This document shows, piece by piece, positions 1,464 to 28,346 of a stretch of 28,346 nt of DNA. This stretch comes from Amoebophrya sp. A120 (lineage: Eukaryota > Protista > Dinoflagellata), in NCBI GenBank assembly GCA_905178155.1, contig CAJINV010000004.1, positions 9,270,765 to 9,299,110 on the forward strand, in the 5' to 3' direction. The notes under the pieces were generated by a model, which worked only from the letters and a program-made list of their open reading frames with translations, was not told where the DNA came from and did not search any database. The translations under genes and the position numbers were made by a program. How positions within the stretch are numbered: position 1 is the stretch's first letter; each line of letters opens with the position of its first letter.

Positions 1464-4400
1464 ATGAGCGCGAGCCGCACCTCTACCCAGCCCCAGCCCC
1501 TGGGGATGGGTGACAAGAAGGCCGCCGGCGAGCTTGGGTCGGGCCACGTGCTCTTTTATGCAATGCAAAAGTATCGTACTAGTATAAATTGCATTACAAA
1601 TTCCCCCAGCATTACAAATTGAATTTGTGATGCTGATTTACTTTGAGAAGGAGATTTGTAATGCATAAATGCAATTACTACGAGTACGATACTTTTGCAC
1701 AGGATATCTTTGCGGGGAACACGAAACTCGCCTCCGCGAGCAATATCAAATGTAAAAATGTCTGGATGTCTGGAAGAATGCAACTTGTGATGCTGAATTT
1801 GGATTCCAAAAAAATCTGTATTGCGTGAGCAGCAAAGGGAGTGCAATTTTTGCTGCGCGGAGAGGGCATTTGTCATGCGGAATAGGCATCGCGAGGCCCT
1901 CAAAAAATCTGTGATGTTAGGGCATGCATCACAGACATCATGGCCCAGGCAAAACATGCATGACAAGTCTCAGAATCTTCCAGACCCAGACATTTTTACA
2001 CTTGATAAGCAAGCGGAAGATGCAAATAGCGGACACGGAGGAAAACGCGACGAAGTTAGAGGCGAGTCTGAACAGCCTTGAGTCGATTGAAGAGCAAAAA
2101 GCCACCGCACAGGGCGCTCTGTCCCAGAAAATGCTGCAAGCACTCGCCTCCTCCACCCCAGAATCGGATTTGCAGGTGGACGAGAAGACGCAGCGAGTCT
2201 CTCTGTCGAAAGCAGGCATGCTCGTGGATGCGGGGGAGAACTTCACGAAAAGCCTGTTACCTCCCGCTTGGTGCGAGGAATGGGAGCTGAATTTGCCGGA
2301 TTACCCGAGAATAGACTTCCCGCAGAAAAAGACGGATAAGTGGTCTCTGGACACGCTCCTCGCGATGGTGCAGCACTTCAAAACCAATCCGGCGCAACCC
2401 TTGCATCCATTGCTGATCATGCGATTGCTGAACGACGCGGAGATTGTGATGAGCAAAAAGTACCACCACGCAATACACCGGGCCACGATTCCGAAGAAAT
2501 CCATGGAACAGAAAGCGACGGACGACAACAAGGAGGGGTTGCTCAAAGGAGGTATTTGGGATATTAAGTTCCTGATGTGATTATAATTTTCGATTTAATG
2601 CTGTGGGAAGCATTTTGATTTTTCATCTAGGCTGAATTTGATAAAACAACACAAAATTCTTGACAACTGCATGTGTGTGACACATTTCTTCTTGATTGCA
2701 CCATAAAACTCGACGACAAAAACAGATTTGAGCCAATTCTCGCTCCTGAACAAGAAAGCCGTGGCCACCCCTGGGCGAACCATCGTCGTCGGCGACACCC
2801 ATGGGCAATTAGAAGACGTGCTTTGGATCTTCTACAAAAACGGGCTGCCAAGTCCCAGCAACGCATACCTATTCAACGGCGATATCGCCGACCGTGGATT
2901 CTACGCGACCGAGATTTTCTCCATGGTACTGGGGTTCATGCTGCTGTATCCGAATTGTGTGGACATGAACCGGGGAAACCACGAGGATGAAACGATCAAT
3001 TTAGACCCCCACTGCGGCGGGTTTTATGAGGAAAACATCCAGAAATACGGCGGGAACATTGGATCCACGATCTACGAATCGTACTTAAAGATCTACTCAA
3101 ACCTACCGCTGGCGAGCGTTTTGGAGAAACGGGTTTTTATCGTACATGGAGGTTTATCGCGGGTAACGGAGGGCATGCTGAAAGTGCTGAGTGGCATTGA
3201 CCATCACGTCTCCAGCACCCCCGAATCCCCGGATAACACGGCGGATACGGTGTTTATCGACGCCATGTGGTCAGATCCAATGGAAGGGAAAGGTATAGAG
3301 ACAGTGATTCTACTGTGATTGAATCTGTTTTCAGCTAGTAAAAATTCGACTTGTTCGCATGTGCGTGTGAAAACGATCTGCATCTGTAATTACCTGTCTA
3401 AAGTACTACCTCGTCGATGCGCGAAGTTTAGGAACTTCGTATGATTTAGATTTTCATTTGAAGTACCCATAACCACGCAGGTATCGTACCATCGAATCGG
3501 GGCCCTAGTCTCGTTCAATTCGGCCCGGACGTCACCATGAAGTTTCTGCGGCAAAACGGCTTCCACTTAGTCGTCCGGTCCCACCAGCCACCGTCCAACA
3601 AGGACGGCGTCTTTTTCCACCACGACGGGAGGCTGATAACGGTTTTCTCTGCTAGTAACTACTGCGGCTGGTACGGAAACACAGGTGCGGTTCTGATCTT
3701 CTCCCCAGGGAAGGGAGATACGAAAGCGGCGTCGTTACCGACGATCGAGATTGTCCGTCATTTTTCCCCCACGTTCGATATGCTCGCAAATGCGGAAATC
3801 ACAACGAATGATTTGTTGGCGATGGACCAGATGCAAGCGAGAGCAAAAAACGCAACCAGCATGGAGCACGCCGCGATCAAAAATAGTCGGCAGTCGCTGT
3901 CGCAGAGAATGGACAAGCTCATCTTCGAAGTAAAAACAAGGTTCGCAAGGATTCTAGTGGATAACAAGCAGGGCTTGTGGAAATTCTGGCTCACGCACGA
4001 GAAAGAGGTATGCAGCTTTTTATCACATTTGAGTTGTTTTTTATGCACTTAGCATGCTTGCTGCAAGAAAATCATCAAGAACAAACTATATAGCTCCACT
4101 ACTTCTGTGGACATCGTAGTAAATACGCGACGCATCCTCGCACAAATTTCTTGACTCGATGTCATAGAAGAAAACTACGAACCATACAATTCATCTACGT
4201 TCGAAAAATCAAAAACCAAAACCACAGGGCGACTACAATGATAACCGAAGTAAGAGCGCGCCGCCGGGGCTGATTACCTTTGACGCCTGGAAGGAGGGGA
4301 TTTCGTCTATGGTTGGGACGAACGGATCCGTTTTGGGCGGCATCCCGTGGCAGCAAATCAAGGAGATCCTTTCTATCGAGGACCCCCACACGAAACTCAT

Positions 4401-6244
4401 CGACTACCCACTGTCGCTCCATCGGTTCCGGGTTGTTATTCGGGACGAGATCAAATCCGAGACGCAAATTCAGGACGTGCGGAAATCGGTCACGACGCAA
4501 TCATCCCTTTTCCCCAAGAAAACGGTGGATGCATCCGGGAACGTGATGCGCCACACGAACTGGATGGAGTCCATTCTGGCAAGATTGTTCGAGATATGCA
4601 TTGCAAATATGTGGTCTGCCTCTGGAAGGATGCAACTTGTGATGCTAAATCCGAATCATGCAAAAATCTGTGTTGCATGAGTCCCAAAAGCTGACTCTTT
4701 TCGACCGAGTTCTTGCAAGGGAGTTTCTCATGCAGGATAGGCATTTCAGAGACCTCACAGAGTCTGTCATGCTAGGTTCCGCATCATGGAAAACCTGCAT
4801 CACAAGTTTGCACTCTTCCAGACCCAGACACTTTTGCACCTGATACGAGACACTGTTGCTAGAAAACGTCCCTTGGCAGGACTTAGTCAAGCGGTTCGCG
4901 GCCCCCGGGTCCGCGCCCGCGTCGGCGGAGAGCGACGACGACGACATTCCGGAAATTGACATGGACACGTTGCAGAAAGTGCTTTGTAGCCTGCAGAAAC
5001 CAGGAAGCTCGGGGAGTAAGACAAACGCCCTGATAACCAAGGAACAAGCCGGGTCGCTCATAAGAACACTGACGGGGTACGGGGGAAGCAGGGTAATATT
5101 AAAGTCACTCCTTTGATAACATCACAATGACCTTGAATATCACGACTACGGAATGGAAAACGTCGTGACTTTTCTTTGCCTTCTTTGCCAGCACACAGTC
5201 CAAAAACGAATTCTTTGCGCTTGTTCTACTTCTGGTGTTGTACTTGTTCTACCTAGTGGTCTATATGTTCCTCGCATCAGAAATTCAAATTTACATTGCG
5301 AAAAAAAACCTACACAAAAAAAACTCCTATCACAGCATTCCGTGACCAACCTGAAGCCCTCCTCCATTTCCCTGCTCGAGTTCCTCTCCCGCCTAGAGGT
5401 CTGCTACACCGGGTATAACGTGCAACGCGTCAGGCAGAAGGTCGAGGCCGGGATCAAAGAGGGCCCGGACGCAGAACAGTCCATCATGAATTTAAAGTTC
5501 GGCACCTCCGTCGTGGCAACTTCCCTGCGTTTAATTGGCCAGGAGATCTACGCGGAGTCCGAAGATTCCCGGTCCGCGAGCAAGAGAACGCACAAAATTT
5601 TCCAAGAAGCGGACAAGGACCAGGACGGGTTGTTGAGTAAGGCAGAATTTCTCGACGTGGTGGACCAATTACTGGCCCGGTTTAAAGATTTTTTGCAGGA
5701 ACATTTTCTATCCAGCAAATCCAAATACGCAACCTCCGGGGCGAAGAAGGCGGCAAAGTCGGATTTACCCTTGTCCCTCCTCGAAGATATCTTCAAAGTG
5801 GTCGACGTAACGCGACAGGGGAAAGTTAGCTATCTCGAATTCCTCCACTGCTTCCAGCCCTCCGACCGGTCCGACGACACCGTCGGGCTGTCGAAGCTGG
5901 ACGCGGATTCTTCGATTCCGCACTTGCGGCACCCGGCGGAGGAGATCCGGGTGGCGTTGATGGAGCAGATCTGCGGATTTCTGTACACGAACAAACAGGC
6001 GCTGCACAAAATCTTTCTCTTCTTCGACAAAAATAACTCCCACCTGATCGAGAAAAAGAACTTCGTGAAGGCGGTGAAGTGTCTCAACGTGACCATCAGT
6101 CTGAAAGCGCCACCGTTGACCAACGACCAGATCGAGATGCTCGCGGACCATTGTGTCCTGAACACCGAGGAACAGATAGACTACCTCCAGTTTCTGAACG
6201 CGCTGGTGATCTGTGACATGCGGACCGGGGAGATGTTTGACTAG
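1464..6244 (+). CDS. PPEF: Ser/Thr protein phosphatase with EF-hands (PPEF/RdgC-like), paralog 1, ~1091 aa, 8 exons
   Basis: Manual join 1464-1556,1712-1743,2013-2551,2726-3292,3481-4007,4228-4594,4851-5092,5336-6244 (3276 nt, frame continuous, colinear with paralog 2). PPP motifs: [37 protein letters not shown]. The IFYKNGLPS motif is typical of PPEF. EF-hand-like loops: DKDQDGLLSKAE, DVTRQGKVSYLE. GT-AG introns at 2552-2725, 3293-3480, 4008-4227, 5093-5335, plus three TIR-type introns. Start codon inferred from homology (ELGSGHVLF vs QLGAGQVLF). Junctions within the 5-bp repeats can slide. Confidence 0.88.
1557..1706 (+). mobile_element. Introner/MITE-like non-canonical intron, TIR family B, 150 bp
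   Basis: Left end TATGCAATGCAAAAGTATCGTACT; right end (reverse complement) TATCCTGTGCAAAAGTATCGTACT. Direct repeat TCTTT at 1552-1556 and 1707-1711. Removal gives HVLF|AGNTKLASAS, matching paralog 2 [14 protein letters not shown]. Confidence 0.92.
1744..2007 (+). mobile_element. Introner, TIR family A, 264 bp
   Basis: Ends TATCAAATGTAAAAATGTCTGGATGTCTGGAAGA and rc TATCAAGTGTAAAAATGTCTGGGTCTGGAAGA. Direct repeat AGCAA at 1739-1743 and 2008-2012. Removal gives ASKRKMQI (paralog 2: ASKRKAQI). Confidence 0.93.
4595..4845 (+). mobile_element. Introner, TIR family A (asymmetric ends), 251 bp
   Basis: Left TATGCATTGCAAATATGTGGTCTGCCTCTGGAAG; right rc TATCAGGTGCAAAAGTGTCTGGGTCTGGAAG. Direct repeat CGAGA at 4590-4594 and 4846-4850. 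Removal gives [12 protein letters not shown] (paralog 2: [12 protein letters not shown]). Confidence 0.92.
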
Positions 6245-7908: not shown

Positions 7909-10900
7909 ATGAGCACGGCCAAACCGCTTCTTACCCGCGCGAACAGCGGTTCCGGGCAAACGCTCGCCCGCGGCAAATCCAGCGGGCTTTCCGCCCCCAA
8001 GGGGCTGGATATGGAGCAGCTCGGGGCCGGCCAGGTACTGTTTCAGGGGAACAGCAAGCTCCAGTCGGCTTCCAAGAGGAAAGCGCAGATTCACGACACC
8101 GAGGAAAACGCCACGAAGTTGGAGCAGTCGCTGAACTCCTTAGAGTCCATTGAGGAGCAGAAGGCCACCGCACAGGGAGCCCTGTCCGCGAAGATGCTAC
8201 AGGCGCTGGCGTCTTCCACCGCGGACAATGATCTCCATTTGGATTCCCAAACCGCAAGGGTTTCCCTCACAAAATCCGGAACCGTGCCCGGTGGTAGCGG
8301 GGAGAACTTCTCCAAATCGCTACTCCCAGCCGCTTGGTGCGAGGAGTGGGAGTCAAATCTGCCCGATTACCCCAGAATAGACTTCCCCCAGAAAAAATCC
8401 GACAAGTGGACCATCGACACGATGCTGGCGATGGTGAAACACTTCCAGACGAACGCGGCGCAACCCTTGCACCCTTTGCTCATCATGCGATTATTGCACG
8501 ACGTGGAGATCGTGATGAGCAAAAAGTACCACCACGCCATTCACCGGGCGACCATTCCGAAGAAGTCCATGGAGCAGAAAGCAGCGGAGGAGAACAAAGA
8601 TAATTTGTTGAAGGGCGATTTAACGCAGTTTTCCTTATTGAACAAAAAAGCGGTCTCCACCCCGGGGAGAACCATCGTCGTCGGCGACACGCACGGGCAG
8701 TTGGAGGATGTGTTGTGGATTTTCTACAAGAACGGGCTACCAAGTCCGAGCAATGCGTATTTATTCAACGGGGACATCGCGGACCGCGGATTTTACGCCA
8801 CCGAGATTTTCGCGATGGTGTTCGGCTTCATGATTATGTACCCGAATTCGGTGGACATGAACCGCGGGAATCACGTATCCTGAGTAAAAACGTCCCCATC
8901 CCAGAGTTGTCATGCAGATTTGCGATTACAGGAAGATTTGTAATGCGCATCTCCTTGAGATGCATTTCTAATCGTGTTTTGGCATTTGTAATGCTGTAAA
9001 CAGGATTAGGGAACGGCTTTCTCATGCGGCTTTACTTGCTAGCCAGCCCTACACTGCATATGGAAGCTTGTCATGCAGAACTCCCCAAGCTGGGGGATTT
9101 GTGTTGCAGACTTTCCATCTGCACTATGGTGTGGGGAGGTTTTTACAGAGGATATCACGAGGACGAAACGATCAACTTAGACCCGCATTGTGGCGGGTTT
9201 TATGAGGAAAACATCCAGAAGTACGGGGGGAATATCGGCTCCACAATTTATGAGTCCTATCTAAAGGTGTACTCAAACTTACCGTTGGCGTCCGTGTTGG
9301 AGAAGCGAGTTTTCATCGTGCACGGTGGCTTATCGAGGGTAACGGACGGAATGCTGAAGGTGCTCAGCGGCATCGACCACCACGTGTCTTCCATCCCCGA
9401 ATCACCAGATAACACGGCGGACACGGTGTTTATCGACGCCATGTGGTCAGACCCAATGGAGGGGAAAGGTATGTGTTACTTTTTTTTTTTATGATGAAGA
9501 AGACTCTGACACTGACTCTGCTACTGCTTGGATTAGAAATTTTCTACGAAATAACTCGATGAACCTGTTGGAGGCAGGTGAACTCGATCTACTGTCGCAA
9601 GCAGTGATCTAGTAGGGCGCTATCTTTCATCAACATCTGTATGAGATTTATCTTGCATGAAGACGACCTTGTCCTTGACTTCACCTCGATCACACGACAG
9701 GTATTGTGCCCTCGAATCGCGGCCCCAGTCTCGTCCAATTCGGCCCGGATGTCACCATGAAATTCCTTCGCCAAAACGGCTTCCACTTAGTCGTCCGGTC
9801 CCACCAGCCTCCGCCCAACAAGGACGGCGTGTTTTTCCACCACGACGGGAGGCTGATAACGGTTTTCTCGGCTAGTAACTACTGCGGCTGGTACGGCAAC
9901 ACCGGCGCGGTTTTGATCTTCTCACCAGGAAAGGGGGATACCAAAGCGAGCAGTCTCCCGACTATTGAGATAGTCCGGCATTTCTCGCCGACCTTCGATA
10001 TGCTGCAAAACGCGGAAATCACGACCAACGACTTGCTCGCGATGGACCAGGTAGCCAACCGCGCGAAGAACGCAACCAATATGGAACACGCGGCCATCAA
10101 AAACAGCAGGCAAGATCTGACCCAAAGGATGGACAAGTTGATCTTCGAAGTGAAAACGAGGTTTGCGCGAATTCTAGTGGACAACAAACAGGCTTTATGG
10201 AAATTCTGGCTCGCGCACGAGAAGGACGTACTGAATTGTTTTTTCGTTTAGAAGACGATTATGATGTGAATCCTGAGAGATTAGTAGATCCATAGCAAAG
10301 AAAAAAGCACTACAGGCGTTGATGCAGTGCTGTGTTTTAGCTTTGGAAGGTGGATAAGCATAAGTATGGTGGTAGACGCAGACGTAGTGTAGCTTCTACG
10401 ATAAGATCTACTTTATCTGGCTCATATTGCCCATTAGCAATAGAAATTTAGCAAAAGTTTCCATTTCAATTCTTCACAACAGGGCGACTACCTCACCCCG
10501 GCCACGAAGAACACTCCGCCTGGATTGATTACTTTCGACGCCTGGAAAGAGGGTATTTCCAGTATGGTGGGGTCCTGCGGCTCGGTGCTGCAGGGCATCC
10601 CGTGGTCCCAGATCAAAGACATTTTGAATATCGAGGACCCGCACACGAAGCTGATCGACTACCCTTTGTCCCTCCACCGGTTCCGAGTGGTGATTCGGGA
10701 TGAAATTCAGGCGGAATCCGCCCTGCAGGACGTGCGGAAATCTTTAGCCATGCAGTCGACCTTGTTCCCGAAGAAAACCGTAGACGGGTCCGGCAACGTG
10801 ATGCGACACACCAACTGGATGGAAAGCATTCTTGCGCGGTTGTTTGAATCTTTGCTCCTGGAAAACGTCCCCTGGCAGGATCTAGTGCAGAAATTCGCGC

Positions 10901-12750
10901 CCCCGGGCAGTTTATCAACTGTAAAAATGTCTGGGTCTGGAAGAACGCGCGATCTGTCATGCTGCTTTTCCATGACCCATGAGGTCTGGAATGCAGGACC
11001 TAGCATGACAGATTCTGCGAGACCTTTCGAATGCCTATCCTGCATGAGAAACTCCCTCCCGACTTGGTTAAAACTGGACGACTTTTGGTAATCATGCAAC
11101 ACAGATTTTTGCGTGCTGCAGATTTAGCATGACAAGTTGCAATCTTGATCTTCCAGACCCAGACATTTTTACATTTGATACAGTTCCGCGGCGTCAGGAG
11201 ACTCCAATTTACCCGAGGTGGACATGGGAACGCTGCAGAAGGTGTTGCAAAGTTTGAGCCAGAAGGGGGCGTCCAGGGGCTCTCGGACCAACGCCTTGGT
11301 TACCAAGGAACAGGCCGCGTCGCTTGTCAGAACGCTCACGGGGTACGGCGGAAGCAGGGTATAATTTTGGTGACTTGATGGACTTACTTTTGCGAAAAAA
11401 TGTATGACTGTGATGTATGTTTGATGCGATGGAGTTAGAGATGGAGTTCAGTCACTGTCGCTCTACGTCTGTTGTTGAAACAGAAAAGATAAAGATACAA
11501 AAAAACTACCTTGCAAAAACTATTATTCTAGAACAAATTTTTCATCCTCCTACAACAACCCTCACAGCACTCGGTGACGAACTTGAAGCCCTCCTCCGTT
11601 TCCCTGCTCGAGTTTCTTTCCCGCTTAGAGGTTTGCTACACCGGGTATAACGTGCAACGCGTCCGCCAAAAGGTGGAATCCGGCATCAAGGAGGGTCCGG
11701 ACGCGGAGCAAACCATTATGAATCTGAAGTTTGGCACGTCCATGGTGGCCACCTGTTTGCGGCTGATCGGCCGCGAGATTTACGCCGAGTCCGAAGACAG
11801 CATCTCCGCGTCGAAGAACACTTTTCAAATTTTCAAGGACGGGGACGTGGATAAAGACGGGCTGCTCTCCCGCGCGGAATTTCTGGAAGTCGTGGACCAG
11901 CTGCTGATGACCTACAAAGATTTTCTCAAAGACTACTTCCTGTCCGGAAAATCCAAGTACAACGTGTCCAGCACCGGCGGGCCGGTGAAGCGCGGGGCTA
12001 AATCCGATTTGCCCGTGGCCTTGCTGGAGGACATTTTCAAGGTGGTAGACGTGACCCGGCAGGGCAAAATCTCCTACCTCGAGTTCCTCCACTGTTTCCA
12101 GCCGTCCGACCGCACGGACGACGTCGTGGGGTTAAGGGACAAAAACAAGGAGAAGCAGAGGACGCTGAAACACCTCAAGCACCCCGCGGAGGAGATCCGG
12201 GTGGCGCTGATGGAGCAGATCTGCGGAGTATTATATTCGAACAAGCAGGCGCTGCACAAAACCTTCCTCTTCTTCGACAAAAACAACAGTCGCAGCGTCT
12301 CGAAAGCGACGTTTTGCAAGGCGGTCAAGTGCTTGAACGTGAGCATCAGTCTGAAGTCGCCACCCTTGACGAACGATCAGATCGAGATGCTCGCCGACCA
12401 CTGCGTGCTCAACAGCGACGACGAAATTGACTACCTGGCGTTCTTATCAAATGTAAAAGTGTCTGGGTCTGGAAGAGTGGAACTTGTGATGCGCATTTCA
12501 GAACATACAAAAATCTCTGATGCATAGGCAGCAAAAGCTGCCCACTTTCTGTCACCAAAATGGCGGATTTGTCATGCGGATTCGGCATTGCGGAAGCTTC
12601 TCGAAACCTGTGACGCTAGAGCTTCCATGCCAGACCTTCTGTGTCATGCAGAAACAGCATGACTCTTCCAGACCCAGACACTTTTACATTTGATAGTTCT
12701 TAAACGCGCTCGTGGTGTGTGACATGTACACCGGTGAGATGTTCGACTGA
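7909..12750 (+). CDS. PPEF: Ser/Thr protein phosphatase with EF-hands (PPEF/RdgC-like), paralog 2, ~1110 aa, 7 exons
   Basis: Join 7909-8875,9160-9468,9701-10227,10483-10912,11186-11358,11568-12444,12701-12750 (3333 nt). Same PPP motifs and EF-hand region as paralog 1, ending [14 protein letters not shown] introns 9469-9700, 10228-10482 and 11359-11567 sit at the same positions as in paralog 1. Three TIR-type introns sit at different positions. Confidence 0.9.
8876..9154. mobile_element. Introner, TIR family C, 279 bp, inside the RGNHE catalytic motif
   Basis: Left TATCCTGAGTAAAAACGTCCCCA; right rc TATCCTCTGTAAAAACCTCCCCA. Direct repeat TCACG at 8871-8875 and 9155-9159. Removal restores [12 protein letters not shown], identical to paralog 1. 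Confidence 0.92.
10913..11180 (-). mobile_element. Introner, TIR family A, 268 bp, reverse orientation
   Basis: Ends TATCAACTGTAAAAATGTCTGGGTCTGGAAGA and rc TATCAAATGTAAAAATGTCTGGGTCTGGAAGA. Direct repeat CAGTT at 10908-10912 and 11181-11185. The interior resembles the reverse complement of 4595-4845. Removal gives [18 protein letters not shown]. Confidence 0.93.
12445..12695 (+). mobile_element. Introner, TIR family A, 251 bp, perfect 34-bp TIR
   Basis: TATCAAATGTAAAAGTGTCTGGGTCTGGAAGAGT occurs inverted at both ends. Direct repeat GTTCT at 12440-12444 and 12696-12700. Removal gives [22 protein letters not shown]. Confidence 0.95.
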
Positions 12751-14222: not shown

Positions 14223-17200
14223 ATGTCGACAAAAGCCAAGATTTTTACCCGGACGAGGTCCTTCGATCTCAACACGACCTTGGGGACGAGGAAAAAACCA
14301 CTTTCGGTCCTGCTAATGCCCGCCCTGAAGATGTGGGCACTTCTTTCCTGCCTGGTCGGGACGATGGGACCATCTTCGACGTCATTTATGAATTTTTGCG
14401 TAGTTGCAGCACCATACACATACACGACTTCCTCGTCTCAATTTGTTCAGGGAGGTCCAGCCTCCATCACAATCCTGAATGCTCTGAGCGGAAACAAAAT
14501 CACACACCTTTGCGAATTCGAGTTGAGAAGTTGGCTCCTGCAGGGGAAAACGGTTGGGGACTTGCGGGAGCTCGTTTTGCAATCCGACAAGGAGCGCTGG
14601 GGAAGTAGGAGAAGTCGCGTGTCGCTGGTCGTCGACAACAAAAGGAATGAAGAACGTTACCAGCAGCCCGATGTTGCTTCCTCGTCACATATGACATTTC
14701 TCACCGACGATCGTCTTAAACTTGAGGACCTGGGGCTTTGGCTACAGGCCCACCTTGACACGGAACTGGAACGAGTACAACGGCAAGGGGGGGCTGGTCC
14801 ACGAGCTCGTACGGCTGCGCCGATCACGCCCGCCCTAGTGGCTCCTTACTTTCCACCGCGGCCCTCGTCATCCACGATCTTCCGGTCACCAATGCCCACC
14901 TTGTCGTCCATGAGAATGCAAGAACCCTCGAGCTGCTCAGCAGGAAGTCTTTTTTATCAAGAAGAACCTTCCAGCTGGGCCCCCTCAGCTGCACAGCAGC
15001 ACATTGTGATTCTCGCTGGCTACCAAAAGGGCTCGGTCCCACTGCTTCTGCCCTCCAGGACGATCCCTGGTGGTGGTATGTCCAGCAGAACAAGGGCAAG
15101 TTCCTACGTGGAGGAAGTGCAAACCGGTTGGCGGGTCTTCACCCGGCCACAGTTCCTGGTGCTGAAGCTGGTCGGCGCGTACGCGAACTTGCGGGTCGGG
15201 GTGGAGAACCTGTGGAAGACGAAGGACCACGCGGCCGACCTCTCGTTCGCCCTGGCGCTTGTGCAGAAAGCGGCGGAGCTTGGGGTAGTAGATGTGTCAA
15301 GAACAGGAGCATCTAGGCCATTTAATATCTCGAGGATCCCCACTTCGTCGAGTACAACAGCGGAGGAAAAAATATCACCGTTGAAGGCCGACATGATCAA
15401 GTGCAATGGGGAGCGAAGACGCTGGCGTGAGGAAGTGAGGCGGAAGCTGCAAGGGTTTCTTTCGTACGTTGAACGAGAGTCTGCTCATCTCGAGAGCCAT
15501 CGTTCTGCTTCGCCCGCGCGGCCCCAAACAACGTATGATAATGATTGTGATGTCCGCGGTACTTCTACAGGCCCCCACTTGGCGGGAAGCGAAAGTGCAA
15601 GTGGCGAACATCAAGCGCGTTCTGCCTTAGACGTCGACCACGGAAGTAGCACTACCCGGCGCTCAAGAAGAAGACAGAGAAACAGAAAGCAAAACGCACC
15701 TAAAAATGGTACTGAAGCTGCACTGGAGATGAATAAACGAGACGAAGAGCTGGCTCAGTTGCACGCTCAGGTGCGGCAAGCCCTGAGCAGGGCTGCCAAG
15801 AAGAGTATGCTTTTCAAGGACGAAGAGTACCATCGCCAGTTCCGCGGTTGTACTAACGAAAGTGTTAAAAATGTTTCGCGTTTGTGGCAGGAGTTCACCA
15901 AGCTGATAAACGACTTGCGGGTGCAAAGTGGTAAAAATTGGATCGGCGTGGACCCGCAGACGGAACGGCCGGCGGAAAGCGGATCTGAGGACCGGTCAAC
16001 AGTTTTGCAGCCCTACTACGAGGGACTGCTCAATGGCGAAATGAAAGAGCAAACTACGCTTTTGGACCAAATAAAGACAGAGTTTACGGACGCAAGTTAT
16101 GCGACGTTTGTTGATGAACTTTTGCACGGCACGGAAAAAGACCTGGAATATTTTTACCACGGTCGTGAGCAGTCGTCTTCTTTTTACAGCAAGAACTCCG
16201 CGTTGTCCGCACGAGTAGTAGAAAATGAGGATCTACAGCACGAGCGGGCGAGGAGATCTTCTTCAGACCTTTCTCATGACGGAGATGAAAGCTCCTGCCG
16301 AGGGGCGGCCATAAAGATGATCCCTCCGACCGCCGCGTCGAGTAGTACTAGTACAGCAGCTCTGGTGGGACGACGGACAATACCTACTGCTTCAGGTTCC
16401 CCTCCAGGTCGTGGGTTTTTTTTTACGAAAGAAGCGGTGATTCGCGACGGGTTGCGATTTCTCCTGAAATCTGCCGCCGCGACGAAGAAAATGCGCAGCA
16501 AGCTGAAAAAGTTGTGTGACGAACTCTTTCTCCGGGTAATCCGTCCGACCGTCAGGCGGTGGCTGCCGGGCTTGGAATTGGAGACGCTGCCGCAGGACCT
16601 GAAGCCCATCCCAGACCTCCTGGACCGCCCCCGGAAGTTGTATGCGCGAAGCGGAAACGTACCCAACCTACAACGTCTTCCGTGGCAACTTCAGGAAGCA
16701 CTTCTTGCAGGTGGTCCTGCTCAACCCTTGACGGACGAGCAGCGGCTGCAGCTGCTGCGTGGGATGTTGACGGTGGACCCGCCGCTGAAATATGCCGCAA
16801 ATCACCCGGTGGCAGAGGCCTGGGCTCGCGAGGGCAAAGACGTCAAAGAGTTTTTCGAGATGGATCTCTCCGATAATTTCGAACTGGTCGACCTGAAAGC
16901 GGATTATCAGAGGGACTATTTCTGGGTCATAACAGCTAGATACGGAAAAAATGGTGAAAATATTATTGGCACACCATCAAACGGACGACAATCAAAAGCT
17001 TCTGGCCCGGATGGGCGAGATGAACGAGAAATACGTCATTCGAAGATATTTGAGTTCGAGTACCGATATAAAGCGGGCGTGGGCACGGAGGCAAAATTAG
17101 ATATGTTGAATATCAAACCATATGACAGAAGCAATAGGGCGCTCAGACTCGAAGAGCTTCGGGTCAAGAAGCTCCTTCTGGTGCGGATTATGCGGAACAA

Positions 17201-17684
17201 CTCTAGCAGCAGCGCCACCGTCTTCACAGATGTATCGACAGTAAATTTCCCGTACACGTACAAATGCCGTCTCCGCATGACAAAACTTGGCTTCGATCCT
17301 AGTTTAGCATGACAAGTTTTACGCTCCAAATTGGTGAAATTTGTGTTGCATCTTGTACATGTACGGGAAATTTGTATTGCATAAGATGAAGCAGAAGAGT
17401 ACGAGGAATATGAGCCTGCTGCTCTTTGGACCTGGTCCCGAAGTTTTTCTTTAGGAAACGAGCTGGAGCTGCGGCAAAGCAGCAACGAGCTGCCGGGAGG
17501 GATCACGTTCAAAAAGCTTAAACTCGTAGCCACGGCGGACGTCACCGACGAACCGGGGAAGGTCTCCCCAATGCCCCACAAGGTCATCGACCCGGAGCTT
17601 TACGCGACAGCAGACGACGCGGCTGAGGCGGCGGAAAAAGCCTTAGCGTCAGGCCTCCTGCTGCCGCAATCGCTCCTTTATTAA
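14223..17684 (+). CDS. Hypothetical protein, ~1100 aa, 2 exons; possible N-terminal hydrophobic segment and ubiquitin-like domain
   Basis: 3-kb open frame (ORF 14190-17312; first ATG 14223, alternative ATG 14316). Removing the TIR element 17233-17383 plus one repeat extends the frame (VFTDEAEEYEEYEPAALWTW...LPQSLLY*) to TAA at 17682-17684. Join 14223-17232,17389-17684. No family recognised. Confidence 0.7.
17233..17383. mobile_element. Introner, TIR family D, 151 bp
   Basis: Left TATCGACAGTAAATTTCCCGTACACGTACAA; right rc TATGCAATACAAATTTCCCGTACATGTACAA. Direct repeat AGATG at 17228-17232 and 17384-17388. Contains the stop codon that truncates the ORF (17310-17312). Confidence 0.88.
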
Positions 17685-19527
17685 GCTGGAATGGGTGTGA
17701 AGTTGTCTCGCGAACTCTTTCTTGAGTGGACACTGCATTGATTTAATACTTAAATGAAACGGCTCCACGCCCACCTCCTCCGTATGAAGTGCATTGATGT
17801 CGACTCAGACCAACGACGAAGGTCAACGCCCCGTCATCCATACTTAGAAAGTAGAATTGCATGATGCATCAAAGTAGCAAAGATTGGTGTGCCTCTAGCG
17901 GCCTCAAAGTCATCGAGTGAACAGCAACGAATGAACATGAAGAGTGAAGAACAAATTAGCATGTTAATTGAAATTTTAGATTTTATGACGTGGTTTGTTA
18001 GTACATGTACAAGCAACAAAGGTTCGCCTCTATAGAGATGGGTGTAACAAATGTGATAAACTTAAACTTTGCAGCAGCCCAGTTGCTGCACGACGGCGTT
18101 TAATATTTTGCGGCTTAGCCTTCGAAGACGAAAGAACATAGACTTGTTGTTATTTTCATTCATATACCCATTTTTTGTTTTTCCCTTTCCCTGCAAAAGA
18201 GGGTGGTTCGAACTGATAGACGTGCAGTTTTGTAGCAAGTTAGTAGTCTTGGACCACTTTACTTCGAAAAAAAACCAAAATGCAACTGCAGGGGCAGAAG
18301 CAAACCAATTTTTCGGAAATTTCCTGACCACGGAAATGAAATTTATGCTAAGTAGGCTAGTTTTCATTTTTTGGACTCTTGGCGTTGGATCGAACTCGAA
18401 GCATTACTTTTTCTTTTCTTTGCTGGCCATACTCTTCCTGGTACTGGTTTAAGTACCCCATGCAAGAAGAGGAGCCGACCAAGTAGGGCACAATCATATA
18501 GTTTGTGAAAGAAGAAGAACGAAACGAACCCACGACCACCAGACAACACAAGGTAGAAGCATGAAAGCCAACACATCTTAAAGTGCCCCCTTCTACTGGC
18601 CTTCAACCAGAGAAACATATTTTCGTTCATTCACTTTCTGCTCTTTCAGTATGAATTTCGGTTCACTCTTCAACACAGTCTCGTCTCCTATATCCGCGAC
18701 GAGCCACCTCAGCCTATGGCTCCGTCTCCGATCGGTTCGTTACAAGGAAAGTCGTAGCGTCCTCGTCGTCCTCGTAATAATGTGGCCTTCGTCGTCGTGA
18801 TCATGTGTCGCCGCTCATTTATAAATGTGTAGTTTTTGTTCACGTTTACGATGCATCGTCTGTTATTTCGTTCGCTTGTTGTACAGAACACCTTGGTTGT
18901 TCATCTGCGTGCTCGTGCTGTCTTGGTCTTTCTCGTCGTGTATGCTTTACATACTACCTGGACCGAGGACCACCTCGCGACACCTACGTCCCCGCTTCTT
19001 TCTCGTGCTATCGTGGCATCGCTATCTTCACATCGCTATCAAATCTGAACGACCTTATGCATTTGTTTTCACCTGTTTGAACTGTTTCGTGTTCGTCTCG
19101 TCCTTCTCCTTTCCTTTCCATTTTTTCGTTTAGCTCGTTGTACTCATTGTTATTACCTCTCAATTTCGGCACTCACCTTTTTGCATGTCATGAAGCGTTT
19201 TTTTTTTTTCATGCCACCAGGTGATATAGTAGTAGTACCCTGTTCCTGTTGTTCACATTATAGCGTTTTTTATAACCCCACTCCCTTGCCCGATGCCGCC
19301 CCCCTTGTGCATTTGCAAGTTTGATGTTTCTGTAGTTTCCTACACTCTTATGTAGTGCTGGTCACACATCATCTCTCGATTCCTGTAAAGAACTGATGTA
19401 CGACTGTAAGCGATTTATTTGTTGGCAAGAATAACACCCCCCCCTGCACCAGTTACATTTTTGGTTCTGTGAAAATGCCAACTTTCGCAAGATCAACAAG
19501 AAGGTAGACACGATCACAAACCTCAAG

Positions 19528-22500
19528 ATGTTGCAGAAGAAGACTAACAGCACCGCATTCCTGTCGCTGAAGAGCAATGCTACGGCTACCTCCACCGACC
19601 CAGAACGTCGCGGCACGACGACCGTGCCAAGCAGTGTTAGCTCCGGCCTGTCCTCGGTCGGCTCGCGGTTTTCCATAGCCAGCAACAAGACCGAAGGAGG
19701 ACATCAAGCGGGCTCTTCTGGGCGAACGTCTTCTGATACAACGGCTGGCGCAGCTGTTGTAGGTGTACAACAGCATCACCATCATCATAGGGACAAGTCC
19801 AATGCTGCCTTGCAGAAGCAGCTTGAGCACTGCCTGCAAATCTTCGAGTCGGTGGAGGAGCAGAAAGCGACGACCCAGTCCGCGCTGAGCGCCAAAATGC
19901 TGCACGCTTTGATGCTCTCGGAGGAGCAGCACGAGCGCGAACGGCGGGCGGGAAAGCACCCGGCATTCGGGTCTCTGCAGAGTAAGGAGCCGGTAGTGCC
20001 ACCACCTGGAGGAGGTGCAGCTCCATCTTCCGGAAGAAGCTCGCCGAGGGGGGGAGTTGTAGTACCTACTACTGGAGTTGTTGTGGGCGCCGGTGGAGAT
20101 CAGAGCGCGGCAACCGCGACAAGTAGCGACCCCGACTTGCCGACAGGTCGTGGTCCCAGACCGAGACCGTCTGCCGCCGAAAACGCAGCGGGATTCGCTT
20201 CCTTTTCTCCGCAGCTCGTCACGGTCCCGGGTTCTCTCGACCCGCACACAGCAGACGAAGACCAACAGCACCGCAACAAGAACAAGGGGGACGAAATTAC
20301 AGGTAGTAAAACATCTTCAGCTACAGGAAGTAGAAATATTACCAGTAGTCCCTCCGCAACTACTACCTCCTCCTCCTATCAGAAGCCTTTAGTATCTGTA
20401 TCCCCACAAGCTGTAAGTAGTAAATCCTCGCCTGCCACCTCGGGCACGACAACCAGCAGTCCCCGGCCCAGCAAAGGAGCCATGACAGCTGCCCGGAGTG
20501 GGTCGTTCCAACAGCAGCGAAGCAAGAAGCAAAGCCTGCGCCATGCGACGTCCTGGTACAACCAGTCACTGTTGCTGAAAAAGGACCACTTTGTCAAGCA
20601 GTGGGAGGAAACTTTTCCGGACTGCCCGAAAATCACCCATCCGCAGCAACAGCCCGGCATGGGTGAGCATTGGTCATTTGTGACGGTCCGGGAGTTGATC
20701 AACCACTTCCAGAAACTCCCGGAGCAACCCTTGCACCCGTATTTTGTCATGCGGCTGCTGTCCGACGCGGAAAGGCTGATGACGAAGAAGCACAACAACG
20801 CGGTCTTCCAGCTCACAGACAAAAGTTTATACTTCTCAGGAAGCGGTACAACTAGAGGTAGTGAAAAGAAAAAGTCAGGGAATAAAGTGGAAACAACAGC
20901 AGGAGCTGCTGCAACTTCTGCAGCAGTTGCACTTGCAGCGGAAGTAAATACTAAAGACATAAAGCAAGAACCTTCCAAGTCCTCCGCCCCGACTTCGCGC
21001 CTGATCATCGTCGGCGACACGCACGGGCAATTGGAGGATGTGTTGTGGATTTTCTACAAAAATGGGCTTCCCTCGGCGGAAAATCAGTACCTTTTTAACG
21101 GGGACATCGCCGACCGCGGGTTTTACTCAATCGAGATTTTTCTGTTGGTGTTTTCGTTGATGCTCATCTTCCCCAACCACGTGCACATCAACCGGGGCAA
21201 CCACGAGGACGCGAACATGAACATGGACCCGCACAGCGGGGGCTTCTACGGGGAGTTGATCGCGAAATACGGGACGCAGCTCGGGCAGTCGATCTACCAC
21301 CAAATGCTACGGAACTACGCGGTGATGCCGCTGGCGACGTTGTTGAAAGAGTCGAAAATTTTCATCGTCCACGGGGGTTTGTCGCGGGTGACGGATAATT
21401 TCCTACAGACCCTCTTAACCTTGGACCGGCAAACCCGGTGCTGCTACGCGATCCCGGATACGCCGAGTCACAGCAATCCGGAAACTTGCTTTTTAGATGC
21501 GATGTGGGCGGACCCGGCGCCGGACGAGGGGGACCGGTCCATCGGAATCTCGCCGTCGAGTCGGGGGCCGCAGCTGATTCAGTTTGGAAAGGATGTGACG
21601 AAAAAGTTTTTGAAGCAATCCGACTGCAAACTCGTGATCCGTTCGCACCAACTGCCCGACAACAACGATGGTGTGCAATTTCACCACGATAGGAGGCTGA
21701 TCACCGTCTTTTCGGCTTCGAATTATTGTGGGATCCACGGGAACCAGGGCGCCATCTTGGTTCTGACCAGGCACGAGGAAGGGGGCCCGCATTTGGAAGT
21801 CGAGCGGCATTTTTCTCCGAGTTTTGAGCAATTGAAAGAGGTGGATTTCTTCGCCAGTTATGGAGAAACATATGGAAATGCCATGGGAGCAGGAGCCGCA
21901 GCTAGTGCTCGTGATTCAAAAAGAGCAGGAATTACGAAAAGCTTGGTTCCGCAGGGGACCATTGGACGAATTGCGGTGGAGGACCGAGGAGCAGGAAGGG
22001 CGGACACATCTGAAGAACTACAGGTAGTTGACGAGGAGGAGGGGGACCAAAATAAAAATACCAAAAAATCTCCTGCTGCGGCATCGGCTTCTGCTCCGGA
22101 AAAATTGCTATCCTCTTCCCCGCGCACCTCCGCTCTGGAAATGGAAAAGAAGGCGATGGCCAAACTGCGTAGCGGCGCTCTAGGTCGCCTCCGGAAGAAA
22201 AAGCTCACCTACGAGGTGAAAACCCGGTTTTCCAGGATCCTGGTGGAAAACAAGCAAGCGCTCTGGAAATACTGGCTCGCGATCGAGCATCAAGGGCAGC
22301 AACAGCAGCAGCAGCATGGAGGACCACGACGAACTTCCACCAGTGACTTGTCTGACCGTTCGAGTGACAGTATCCGGAACTCAAGTAGGCCCAGAAAATC
22401 TAACACACCCGACGGAATGATCACGCAGCAGAGTTGGTCCGACGGAATCGTCTCGATCGCCGGTGCGCCGGATATGAAGGAGCTGCCCTGGGGAAAGCTG

Positions 22501-25500
22501 GTCTCGGAAGTGCTGGGGATCGAGGACGAGCATTCGCATCTGATCGACTACTATTTCACGTTGCACAGATTCCGGGTGGTAATTAAAGAGGAACTAGAAG
22601 CGGAGCACGGCAGACGGATCCAGGGTCGGAACAACAGGGGGAATAAAAGAAGTGTGGTCTTTGCAGAAGGAGAGGCTGGCGCAGCAACATCTTCAGAGCA
22701 GTACAAGAAGATGTTGAACACAAAATCTTCGAAGTCCTTCGACCCTCGCGGCACCATAGAGCTCATGGAGGTTGATAGTCTTATTTCTGGGTCTGATCCG
22801 GTGGGTCCTGCTGCTGGTGACAGCACGCAGCTATTAACGAATCGTCGAGCAATCATAGCTCAATCCACGACCTCCACAGGCGGAACTACACCAGCGCGCC
22901 AGCTTCCCGCTGCTGAAGGCGAACTTCCAGCTCTATCTCGGGGCGTTTCGGAAGATGATACGGCAACCAACATAGAAATAATTCCTCCCAAGATGAACGT
23001 TCTCGACCCTACTGGCGCGGCGGGCGGGAACGTCGACCTGCGATCCAGGTTAAACGCTTTCGACACCATCCAGGACAAACGTGTTATGGCAACGAATGTC
23101 ACGTTAAAGAAGAGATCTACCGAGGACTTGGAGCGCAGCCGCAGGCTTAGCAGCGACGCGACAGCTATAATTTCCGGCACGGCTGCAGCGGTCGTGCTGA
23201 AGGACGTCGATAGTATTATTCAAAATGCCACAGACCACGCTCCTCCCGAGAACAACGATAATGAAACCAACTACAACATCGGGGCGCTTTCTCTAGAAGC
23301 TCTGGAAGAGAAAGCTGGAGCTGCAGTACTAGGTCGCAAAACTGTGCCACAGAACCCCGCGCACGACGAGGCACAAAAGAGACCGGTCTTTCAGCAAACC
23401 TCGTCCAATTGGATGGAGGGGATTCTGGCGAACATTTTTGAGAAGCTGTTGCGGACGGAGGTCCCCTGGATGGACTTGGTAGAACGGATGAACATCAAAA
23501 AAGAATCCAGCAATGCGTCTGCTGTTGGTGCTGGAAATAAAATTAAAGCGGAAGTGAACAATAAGACCGAAGATGGAAGCAGCGCAAAAAATAACCCCGA
23601 CGTTGAACAGCAAAACGAAAGCGAGACCCAAGCCGATAGACGCACCAAATTTGCCGAGCTGATGGAAGAGCCATTGGATGTGAAGGTTTTTGAAAAGATT
23701 CTGATGTCTTTTAACGACCTTTTCGCGGACTACAGTGAAGACAATTCGACTTCCACTACTTCTAGGAGGTCCAGATCGAGCGAATATCAACTGCAAAAGT
23801 GTCCTCTGGGTCTGGAAGATTGCCAGGTTTGTCATGCAGGTTTTCTATGGCTCATAACGTTTAGAATGCAGGAGCACCTAGCATGACAAAGTCTGTGAGA
23901 CCTCTATCATGTCCGTCCTTCATGAGAAATTCCCCCTCAGCTTGGTAAAAAAGGACGGCTGTTGGTAATCACGCAACACAGATTTTCTGCATGATGCAGA
24001 TTTAGGTTTAGCATTACAAGTTGTGACCTTCCAGACCTAGACATATTTGCATTTCATAGCGAGACGCTGCTGACGAAAGACCAGGCGGCGAGTTTGATCC
24101 GCACGTTGACAGGCTACGGGTCTTACAATGCAGCTCCGAGTAAAGTAGAGCAACAGCAAGAACAAGATGGCACTGGTACAACTAAAACTACGGCTCCTAA
24201 TAAAACCTCCGGCAATATCAAGAAGGGTAGTACCAAAGGAAAAGGCAAGCAACTACTGTCTCTCGCCGAATTCCTTTCCCGGTTGGACATTTGTTACATA
24301 TCCTGTGCAAAAGTATCGTACGCGTATAAATGCAAGTCTTGCATTACAAATATTTTTCTTTGAGGTAAATCAGCATGACAAATTTTATTTCTCATGCTGA
24401 GGAAATTTGTAATGCATTTATACGACTACGATACTTTTGCAATGCATATTACACGGGGTACAGCAATCGTGTGCGACAGAACCAAAGACTTAGGGAGCAA
24501 TCGGACGAGGGGAATACTATCAATGTCAACAATGTCAACGCGGCATTAATCCGGGCCAGTAGCAACGAGAGCAGCGAGGAGAGTGAGTCGACACCCGATA
24601 ATGTTTTTGCGAAGAAAAAGACCAGCACGACCGAGCGGACGTCGACCCAGTCCACACAATCTGTTGACCGCTTTGATTTCAACAAGTACGGCAGTACGAC
24701 GGTCGCGATCTGTTTGCGGATGATTGGCCGAGATATCGGGAATAAGACGTTTGAACTCTTCAAGAACGCGGACAAGGATCAATCCGGAATGCTGACCGAG
24801 AAGGAGTTTTTCGCGGTCACAGAACAGTTGTTACTCCCGCACGCGGAGTATCTGCAACAGTACTTTTTGTCGGATAAAAAATTTAACTCGTCCACCTCGC
24901 CGGGCAACAAGAACACCTTCGCCCCGATGCCGCGCACAACTACTTCAGATGGAACAACAGCAGGTATTGGTACAACCAATGCCGCAAATAAGATTCCGGA
25001 TTCCCTTCTCCGGGAAATTTTCAAGACGGTCGATTTTAACAAAACGGGAAAAATCAGCTATTTGGAGTTTCTCCATTGCTTCCAAGACCCAGACGGCGAC
25101 TTCGGGTTTGAAAAGGTGACAAACGAGAATGTTGACAGCAGTGTTACTAACACAGCCAATGTCAAGCACGACGAGTTCCGCATCGCCTTGATGGAGCAGA
25201 TTTGCGGGGTGCTCTACACGAACAAACAGGCGCTACTCCGTATGGATGTGTCAGGATCGAAATCGTCAAAGTTGAAATAGTTTGCCATGCATAATAAAAC
25301 CGATACCAGTCAGAAGCCCACGTATCAAGCGGCGCATGACAAATTTTGGCACCGTCTAAATCCAATTTGTCATGCTGTTTAGGGACAGAGGGCGTCCTTT
25401 GTCATGTTGCTTTAGCAGCTGTGTCGCAGACTCCAAACAGGCTGACAGTCGGCCTCACTTGCCATCCCTGCAAGAGAAGCACTTCATGCCTTGGAGTTTA

Positions 25501-26118
25501 TGCATGAGAAATCATTTCAACTTTGTTGATTTCAAACCTGACGCCTCCATACTCCGGGTGTTCCAATTTTTCGACGACAACCACGACCACCGGATTACGT
25601 ATTGAGAGGAAAAATCCCCCCTCCCCATATTGAAAAGGTATGTCTCCGGAAATTTGTGTTGCTGATTTGAGGTCACAAATCACATCTGTCTTGCAAGAAG
25701 ACAAGGGCAAAAGCTTCCGCCATATTATCGAGGCGATTTGTCATGCCGTTGGGCCTAAAGGGAGGCCGTTTGCCATGCTGAGCAACTAGACCCATACGCC
25801 CCCAGCTAGCCGGCGGATCTGGCCGCTATGCCTTTCTGCAACGCAAATCTGATTTGTGTACCCAAATCCAGCATCAGAAATTTCGTTTTGATATGGGGAG
25901 GGGGGATTTTTCCTTTTGATATTACGCAGATGGAGTTTGTGAAAGCCTTGAAGTGTCTAAACATCGCGATCAACCTCCGGGATCCGCCGTTGACGAAGCA
26001 ACAGATCCAAATGATGGCAGACCACTGCGTTTTGGATAAGGACGGGAGAATCGACTACGTGCTGTTTCTGAACGCATTGTGCATCTGCGACATGCAAACC
26101 GGAGAGATTTTTGATTAA
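19528..26118 (+). CDS. PPEF: Ser/Thr protein phosphatase with EF-hands (PPEF/RdgC-like), divergent expanded paralog 3, ~1837 aa, 5 exons
   Basis: Join 19528-23784,24064-24298,24454-25240,25557-25599,25927-26118 (5514 nt). Motifs [40 protein letters not shown]-like loops DKDQSGMLTEKE, DFNKTGKISYLE, DDNHDHRITQME. Ends CDMQTGEIFD*. Long S/T/A/G-rich insertions. Start codon is uncertain, and in-frame stopless introns cannot be excluded. Confidence 0.85.
23785..24058 (-). mobile_element. Introner, TIR family A, 274 bp, reverse orientation
   Basis: Left TATCAACTGCAAAAGTGTCCTCTGGGTCTGGAAG; right rc TATGAAATGCAAATATGTCTAGGTCTGGAAG. Flanks are GCGAA (23780-23784) and GCGAG (24059-24063). Interior is similar to 10913-11180. 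Removal gives SSETLLTKDQAASLIRTLTGYG. Confidence 0.9.
24299..24448 (-). mobile_element. Introner, TIR family B, 150 bp, reverse orientation relative to 1557-1706
   Basis: Left TATCCTGTGCAAAAGTATCGTA; right rc TATGCATTGCAAAAGTATCGTA. Direct repeat TTACA at 24294-24298 and 24449-24453. Removal gives LDICYTGY (paralogs: LEVCYTGY). Confidence 0.93.
25241..25551. mobile_element. Introner, TIR family E, 311 bp
   Basis: Left TATGGATGTGTCAGGATCGAAATCGTCAAAGTTGAAAT; right rc TATGGAGGCGTCAGGTTTGAAATCAACAAAGTTGAAAT. Direct repeat CTCCG at 25236-25240 and 25552-25556. Removal gives KQALLRVFQFFD. Confidence 0.9.
25600..25921. mobile_element. Introner, TIR family F, 322 bp
   Basis: Left TATTGAGAGGAAAAATCCCCCCTCCCCATAT; right rc TATCAAAAGGAAAAATCCCCCCTCCCCATAT. 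Direct repeat TTACG at 25595-25599 and 25922-25926. Removal gives HRITQMEFVKALKCLN. Confidence 0.92.
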
Positions 26119-26390: not shown

Positions 26391-26468
26391 TATGGATTGC
26401 AAAAGTGTCTGGGTCTGGAACAAGATTGTCACTTGTCGTGCTATTAAATACAAATCATGCAAGGAATC
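26391..26468 (+). mobile_element. Truncated family-A element end in apparently intergenic DNA
   Basis: TATGGATTGCAAAAGTGTCTGGGTCTGGAACAAGATTGTCACTTGTCGTGCTA matches the family-A terminus and subterminal sequence. No partner TIR was seen downstream. The right boundary is approximate. Confidence 0.7.
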
Positions 26469-27057: not shown

Positions 27058-27146
27058 ATACATACATACATACATACATACATACATACATACATACATA
27101 CATACATACATACATACATACATACATACATACATACATACATACA
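27058..27146. repeat. (ATAC)n microsatellite, ~22 units
   Basis: Perfect ATAC tandem run. Confidence 0.97.
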
Positions 27147-28298: not shown

Positions 28299-28346
28299 TA
28301 CATACATACAGACATACAGACATACAGACATACAGACATACAGACA
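28297..28346. repeat. (CATA)n then (CATACAGA)n microsatellite
   Basis: CATA x3, then alternating CAGA/CATA to the window end. Confidence 0.93.

Follow-up and report, generated by a model that had tools for sequence, protein, structure and literature searches.

Introners of Amoebophrya and comparable systems

Introner elements are known from the dinoflagellate Amoebophrya sp. A120, where, in the passages devoted to them by Farhat et al. (2021; PMC7789003), they have inverted repeats (IRs) made of TAT, seven variable bases, and a run of A, direct repeats (DRs) of 3 to 5 nucleotides (nt) (5 bp in the legend of Fig. S19), non-canonical splice ends, and many families. Published A120 family lengths in rows 1 to 19 of the 58 given by Gozashti et al. 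(2025; PMC12130899) are approximately 106, 149, 208 to 227, 252 to 261, 278, 305, and 319 to 349. How tens of thousands of A120-type introners move and are spliced is left open in those passages, with no transposase and no detectable U1 (PMC7789003). Here we analyzed a 28,346-nt stretch of A120 DNA (contig CAJINV010000004.1, positions 9,270,765 to 9,299,110; the window), together with a wider sample of loci, and describe a short word, TTGT(C/G/A)ATGC (the strict motif), that recurs in both orientations inside TAT…ATA inverted-repeat elements acting as introns.

By anatomy, the window elements appear to match the published introners (PMC7789003, PMC12130899): the make-up of the IR is alike, the DRs are 5 bp, the splice ends are non-canonical, the families are many, and the lengths of the present families (109 to 322) match those in the published rows. 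The nonconventional introns of euglenids are, as here, paired by terminal inverted repeats (TIRs), flanked by target site duplications (TSDs), and non-canonical at their ends; in the passages on them (PMC11282704), the conserved signal is terminal (CAG/CTG near the ends) and an internal spaced array is not described. The elements are already known, and the internal word and its spacing are apparently new within the literature searched. The introner passages of the two A120 papers describe only IRs and DRs, whereas the shared word, the spacing rule, and the orientation test come from this analysis. Topic and string searches of the literature found no mention of an internal word or spacing in the text that they covered, and the word was absent from the searched passages of PMC9860276, PMC11282704, and PMC11453091 and from the searched supplement text of PMC7789003 and PMC12130899.

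Arrays of subterminal transposase sites are established for piggyBac/piggyBat, Tol2, Ac, Tag1, and Tn7 (PMC11707139). As described there, a short word occurs in both orientations at regular distances from the tips, non-autonomous derivatives included, and the array reported here is alike in these respects. It differs in that it tiles the whole 110- to 320-bp element, spans families with different TIR interiors, and has no known cognate transposase. Our preferred reading, held with moderate confidence, is that a single mobilizing protein common to all families binds the word in double-stranded DNA; we predict this protein to be a transposase or a host cofactor of one.

A short internal word shared among element families

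A motif-blind scan of the window, based on a TAT…ATA pair, a 5-bp direct repeat, and similar ends, returned 11 candidates, 10 of which were accepted as elements; the candidate at 26442 to 27014 was dropped for its weak ends and mismatched repeat. An eleventh element (4595 to 4845), concealed from the automatic scan by a TIR indel, was added by eye. The 11 elements amount to 2,669 bp, and all are flanked by a 5-bp TSD (one with a mismatch). Being short, non-coding, bounded by TIRs and a fixed-length TSD, and inserted in both orientations, they have the features of miniature inverted-repeat transposable elements, and we regard them as non-autonomous TIR elements that act as introns and carry a conserved, regularly spaced word.

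The whole window contains 28 strict matches, compared with 0.74 expected (100 dinucleotide shuffles; largest value, 3). All but one of these lie inside the elements, leaving a single copy in the remaining 25,677 bp (binomial P = 5e-27). Each of the 11 elements has at least one strict copy, while shuffled elements had a mean of 0.18 and a maximum of 2 (300 shuffles). The preliminary description had judged the word rare in exons and canonical introns, and this holds: the sole strict copy outside the window elements, at 20744, is in an exon of the fourth host gene, and none was found in the seven of seven GT-AG introns checked at approximate coordinates.

The wider sample was drawn by a pattern scan with the family-0 TIR and comprises at least 134 loci (870 kb including overlaps), all from one public assembly (JACKZZ01 contigs); family 0 is over-sampled and the other families are unselected. 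Under the scan thresholds, block-shuffled controls gave 2 matches versus 589 observed before de-duplication. Among the loci listed, 433 unique elements, 9 of them from the window, were found without use of the motif; they fall into 11 families of 4 to 182 members, and besides these there are 2 pairs and 15 singletons, some of which are nested or due to chance. Strict copies number 909 in 112,091 element bases and 84 in 523,726 masked background bases (8.1 versus 0.16 per kb), so the word clearly exceeds background. A strict copy is present in 403 of the 433 elements and a relaxed copy in 431. Motif discovery, proposed earlier as a check, blindly ranked TGTCATGC first among the 8-mers common to several families, with 10 of the 11 carrying it, and the extended word reads (A/G)A(T/C)TTGTNATGC(A/T).

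The terminal profile is TAT(C/G)N5…AAAA, with A at positions 11 to 14 in 83 to 95% of the 433 elements; the TAT ends were a search criterion and hence are not an independent observation, and the full A run is absent in families 5, 6, 7, and 10. The 5-bp duplication has no base preference. At one locus (L014, 3711 to 4520), several whole and partial elements adjoin or nest within about 800 bp.

A part of the background copies belongs to missed or decayed elements; 3 of the 84 have a TIR-like box upstream. Strict copies, some in pairs 31 to 33 bp apart, were also seen where no element was detected (L014, 1500 to 4710; L030, 2397/2430; L059, 4492). A TIR-less GT…AG-like intron (L077, 2100 to 2240), which starts with GTAT and ends with ATAAG, contains a motif pair 32 bp apart and is possibly an old element turned canonical intron. 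In viral_contigs, there was no match to the family-0 TIR, and the 59 motif-pair matches were spread over all four allowed spacings; 1 of the 59 had a TIR-like pair, with few motif copies, and these matches were taken as chance. Rfam gave no match at the gathering score.

Regular spacing of the word

Same-strand pairs of the word separated by 31 to 33 bp occur 17 times in the consensus sequences of 10 of the 11 families (null mean, 1.6; maximum, 8), and in 20,000 trials no 3-bp window reached 17. Spacing in individual members likewise peaks at 31 to 33 bp. The upstream copy of a pair is the stricter one, and the copy 31 to 33 bp later is weaker. We consider this rule strong evidence.

Spacing relative to the termini, which the preliminary description had suggested examining, proved to be ordered: counted from the tip, the first inward copy comes at about 32, 42, or 53 bp. 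Of the 22 family ends, 16 have an inward copy whose start falls within 62 bp, at 32 to 33, 40 to 44, or 52 to 55. The right end of family 0 is bimodal (33 in 41 members and 41 to 42 in 82), and the left end of family 4 has two modes (43 to 44 and 54 to 55). Given the 10.5 bp per turn of B-DNA, end steps of about ten bases and paired copies three turns apart suggest that the word is phased on the B-DNA helix. As in a subterminal array, these elements repeat a short word in both orientations, and its distances from the ends are constrained. Inverted copies recur 16 to 17 and 45 to 49 bases apart. Copies alternating on a 16-bp lattice were noted in families 0, 2, 7, and 10; in the average over families, such a lattice was not above 5%, and it was rejected.

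Constraint on the word within families

Substitutions were compared in disjoint nearest-neighbor pairs from the eight largest families, with pairs chosen on non-motif columns. Motif bases differed at 875 of 9,836 positions (0.089), other internal bases at 4,281 of 24,296 (0.176), and the central N of the word at 248 of 1,201 (0.206), and the lower motif rate was seen in each of the eight families and for all four bases. The word therefore behaves as the common cis-signal that had been proposed, under excess conservation, with purifying constraint on its bases and not on the N. The refutation named beforehand, common ancestry without such an excess, does not hold, as substitution in motif columns runs at half the rate of the spacers with the N free. 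This free central N argues against alignment anchoring as the cause of the conservation. Among the loci listed, only one pair of insertions with shared flanks was found.

In the five largest families, the ratio of motif to other substitutions was 0.35 on internal tree branches and 0.48 to 0.66 on terminal branches. The TIRs changed similarly at positions 11 to 28 (0.27 internal versus 0.53 to 0.58 terminal), and TIR positions 4 to 10 evolve at or above the neutral rate. Stronger constraint on internal branches is expected if selection acts at transposition, when intact copies spread, although homoplasy and the consensus-based choice of columns could both contribute to this pattern.

A probable DNA signal rather than an RNA signal

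The preliminary description had left two roles for the word: a binding site for one transposase or an RNA element recruiting a splicing factor. To assign orientation outside the window, host strand was inferred by a codon model, not from RNA, with 225 of 232 calls concordant within loci. Insertions were 137 sense and 126 antisense (263 called of 414 family members), and no family was biased. On the inferred transcripts, strict copies numbered 277 forward and 271 reverse, with 20 elements lacking a forward copy and 21 lacking a reverse copy. Family 3, whose copies all point one way, has 10 sense and 19 antisense insertions; the transcript has no forward word in 14 of the 19 antisense insertions and no reverse word in 10 of 10 sense insertions.

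Covariation between the N positions of inverted copies was absent (e.g., 45 observed versus 44.9 expected of 129), and an all-pairs helix scan put only the family-0 TIR clearly above control; measured against the parallel control, no interior helix stood out clearly. The TIRs account for the bulk of the compensatory changes (49 events in families 0 to 4, with slid controls of 0 to 2 each). Interior counts were 0, 4, 4, 2, and 9 (controls up to 2, 2, 2, 2, and 5), the 9 events belonging to family 4, which has an extended TIR. We also observed that paired TIRs (positions 4 to 28, families 0 to 4) change on the same tree branches, a concerted change that speaks for either selection on end pairing or conversion of one end by the other. 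Folding of whole elements, with the TIR stems included, is strong (z = -7.2 and -9.4). In the folds, which had earlier been proposed as a check of whether motif copies pair, local hairpins exist in the interiors but are not conserved as pairs.

Neither presence in one orientation on the transcript nor covarying pairs between copies, both marks of an RNA cis-element, was found. Insertion either way, the absent covariation, and the spacing in helical turns together favor a double-stranded-DNA binding site over an RNA signal; of the two roles first proposed, that of a DNA site for a transposase is favored and that of a single-stranded RNA element is disfavored by the 137:126 orientation, the missing covariation, and the spacing of about three turns.

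Relatedness of the families

The families had been called unrelated, and this part of the preliminary description did not stand. The elements at 1557, 24299, and 17233 fall in one family (family 1), and families 5/6/10, 4/7, and 0/4 have collinear layouts and residual spacer similarity. Unmasked family profiles match other families collinearly across up to 130 to 190 columns, and masking of the motifs leaves only the 6/10 pair matching. When spacers were shuffled with motifs fixed, the advantage of real members was clear for 5/6, 5/10, 6/10, 4/7, 0/4, and 1/7 and slight for most of the remaining family pairs. The bases directly after the first motif site have a weak shared consensus, and in its right half the spacer does not differ from random (P = 0.33). 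The families are probably linked by distant descent, and what they still share is mainly the motif layout; ancestry alone does not account for the constraint on the motif. An origin of the motif as a plain copy of the TIR tip holds in family 1 (1.1 versus -10.4 shuffled) and is weak in family 0; it was rejected as a general explanation.

Proposed mechanism and candidate movers

We suggest that a spacing of 31 to 33 bp would set bound protomers on one face of the helix, where an array would help to assemble paired ends. Copies that keep the array would be the copies that spread, so that the word would survive as families arose by divergence of spacers and TIR interiors. The main requirements for splicing would be paired TIRs and a duplicated target, and not the word. 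One machinery may link all families.

A DDE or integrase-like enzyme would be in keeping with the random 5-bp duplication. CACTA and Mu are further transposons with subterminal binding arrays. The TTAA target of piggyBac and the 8-bp duplication of hAT elements differ from the termini and TSDs found here, and Transib, with a 5-bp TSD and CAC termini, fits in TSD length and not in termini. The TDD-4 and TDD-5 elements (Ginger2/TDD) make 5-bp TSDs (PMC2836005), and an A120 TIR family with Copia/Gypsy-like open reading frames (ORFs), family 38, is listed by Gozashti et al. (PMC12130899); together, these make an integrase-like mover plausible. Ginger1 and Ginger2 elements have TGTNR ends and prefer specific targets (PMC2836005), whereas the ends here are TAT(C/G) and the TSDs have no base preference.

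A possible 4.2-kb autonomous element at L046, 10001 to 14208, was rejected, as it consists of two separate family-0 copies with a chance-identical TSD and a host exon between them; its 871-amino-acid (aa) ORF has no Pfam match. Other long TIR pairs considered as autonomous elements appeared to be chance pairings.

Weighing the explanations

Several observations weigh against a DNA site for a shared mobilizing protein. Neither an autonomous element nor a transposase was found in the window and the 134 loci listed, which are a small part of the genome, and in their introner passages, Farhat et al. report no transposase in A120 and argue against general mobilization by a transposase (PMC7789003). 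The spacing has exceptions, with 6 of the 22 family ends lacking an inward site and family 5 lacking a 31- to 33-bp pair; the circular phase test is broad (R = 0.86 at 10.5, 0.78 at 9.5, and 0.79 at 11.5), and the spacing counts are not independent because the families are partly related, so that the end-distance phasing is moderate evidence. The 84 background copies exceed the 15.5 expected from an order-3 Markov model. Mononucleotide shuffles that keep the motif fold less stably than the interiors of families 3 and 4 (z down to -7.8). Terminal branches keep about half the neutral rate, a ratio short of 1, and constraint was slightly higher on exonic copies than on the 15 non-coding copies compared (0.52 versus 0.61; P = 0.066). 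Motif columns were taken from the consensus, which biases the comparison slightly toward conservation, above all on internal branches.

The residual terminal-branch constraint and the contrast between exonic and non-coding copies leave room for a host function, and the word could instead be read, as DNA, by a host or domesticated protein that marks elements on chromatin and brings in the non-canonical splicing activity during transcription. Such a mark would account for insertion in either orientation and place mobility and splicing under one factor; the relaxed copy kept in 431 of 433 elements, the roughly 5-fold excess in background, the 32-bp pair in the TIR-less GT-AG-like intron (L077, 2136/2168), and the want of a detected U1 snRNA or transposase in the A120 passages (PMC7789003) also speak for it. 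We nevertheless think it unlikely. Constraint is clearly stronger on internal branches, non-coding copies are conserved too (0.61), the terminal branches of a small sample still conceal rounds of transposition, and concerted change is confined to the TIRs, which suffice to join the splice ends.

We give still less credence to an RNA element, whether sequence or hairpin arms, that recruits a splicing factor: the strong whole-element folding, the stable interiors of families 3 and 4, and the recurrence of inverted copies at 16 to 17 and 45 to 49 bases are set against the even strand counts, the family 3 insertions in which one orientation of the word is missing from the transcript, and interior helices unsupported by covariation at the N. 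An equally small chance goes to the word being the functionless last remnant, or a mutational cold spot, of one ancestor built from a repeat unit of about 31 bp. The collinear profile matches, the six family pairs that outscore shuffled spacers, and the weak consensus after the first site fit such an ancestor, and shared ancestry itself is probably true and compatible with a binding site. As an account of the word, the functionless remnant is largely refuted by the within-family constraint: substitution is two-fold lower and ongoing in all eight families and for all four bases around an N that is free in mid-word, masking nearly abolishes the similarity, and nothing beyond random is seen in the right spacer half. 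The reading that we prefer remains a DNA site for a shared mobilizing protein.

Elements of the window, their host genes, and their probable removal from transcripts

Four genes, all on the plus strand, host the window elements; three are phosphatase/EF-hand paralogues and one is an unknown gene. Host gene 1 (~1464 to 6244), a phosphatase plus EF-hand paralogue identified by the resemblance of its ORF pieces to host gene 2 and not by a Pfam scan of its own, hosts A1, B1, and B2. A1 (family 1; 1557 to 1706; TSD TCTTT) has the four copies first reported, at 1591 and 1609 (minus) and 1625 and 1656 (plus); its terminal box at 1560 resembles the motif and lies 31 bp from the 1591 copy, and in silico excision leaves the reading frame open. 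B1 (family 0, forward; 1744 to 2007; TSD AGCAA) has copies at 1785 (plus), 1870 (plus), and 1958 (minus), with a relaxed partner 31 bp beyond 1785. B2 (forward; assigned to the family 0 type from its TIR and motif layout; 4595 to 4845; TSD CGAGA) has copies at 4637 (plus) and 4797 (minus).

Host gene 2 (7909 to 12750) is a calcineurin-like phosphoesterase with EF hands (Pfam Metallophos and EF-hand matches), which we take to be PPEF/RdgC-like, and hosts C1, B3, and B4. In C1 (family 3; 8876 to 9154; TSD TCACG), multiple copies had correctly been noted, the count being four strict (8907, 8938, 8986, and 9068) and six relaxed or strict in all instead of about five; every copy is on one strand, in three pairs spaced 31, 33, and 31 bp. 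B3 (family 0, reverse; 10913 to 11180; TSD CAGTT) has a strict copy at 11127 (minus) and four relaxed copies, and B4 (family 0, forward; 12445 to 12695; TSD GTTCT) has copies at 12484 and 12569 (both plus). Between host genes 1 and 2, three canonical intron positions are apparently common and none of six mobile-intron positions is, and these disjoint positions suggest insertion after duplication.

Host gene 3 (~14166 to 17684), whose long ORF (~1,050 aa) matched no Pfam family, hosts D1 (family 1; 17233 to 17383; TSD AGATG), where GCATGACAA occurs twice, as reported, at 17275 and 17307 (both minus, 32 bp apart); an additional relaxed pair is spaced 31 bp, with the terminal box as its second member. 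Host gene 4 (~19435 to 26118), a diverged phosphatase paralogue, hosts four elements. B5 (family 0 type, reverse; 23785 to 24058; TSD GCGAA/GCGAG, one mismatch) has copies at 23829 (plus), 23881 (minus), and 24011 (minus), and A2 (family 1, oriented opposite to A1; 24299 to 24448; TSD TTACA) has copies at 24341 (minus), 24373 (minus), and 24407 (plus). The reported pairing of TTTGTCATGC with TTTGCCATGC was found in both remaining elements: E1 (family 7; 25241 to 25551; TSD CTCCG) has copies at 25334 (minus) and 25367 (plus) and a variant at 25282 (plus), and F1 (family 4; 25600 to 25921; TSD TTACG) has a copy at 25738 (plus), a variant at 25770 (plus), and three relaxed pairs spaced 32, 32, and 33 bp.

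Splice joints were sought in contigs of runs X1 and X3, from one sample that we guess to be RNA. For seven of the eight complete elements between 8001 and 27000, these contigs exactly skip the element plus one 5-bp duplicate: C1, 284 (279 + 5); B3, 273 (268 + 5); B4, 256 (251 + 5); B5, 279 (274 + 5); A2, 155 (150 + 5); E1, 316 (311 + 5); and F1, 327 (322 + 5). The ends of the seven skipped elements are non-GT-AG, family 0 is skipped in both orientations, and three GT-AG introns are likewise skipped; D1 had no splice joint in these contigs. The reads of run X8 (78, all partial) and the four contigs of run X5 do not extend over the host genes and carry no weight here. Summed contig depth in run X6 was 24 to 36 in bins off the elements and up to 186,704 over them, which shows a high copy number of the elements and is not a copy count.

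An orphan family-0-type end (26391 to 26441, plus) lies outside the genes, 3' of the last one. A variant of the motif occurs about 42 bp inward, and no second end that matches was found. The X1/X3 contigs show loose ends nearby, at 26312 and 26391. The window also contains a GC-rich imperfect tandem repeat (1 to 383), a (CATA)n tract (27058 to 27146), and a CAGA/CATA tract (28297 to 28346).

Implications

A constrained, spaced word common to all sampled families suggests one trans-acting factor. The word offers a bait for pull-downs and a profile with which to look for an autonomous partner and decayed copies, as well as a clean means to separate selection for mobility from selection for splicing. 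We further speculate, and consider it improbable, that one protein reading the helically phased TTGTNATGC array both mobilizes every introner family and marks each copy for U1-independent splicing during transcription; if so, introns would be defined by a transposon's DNA code.

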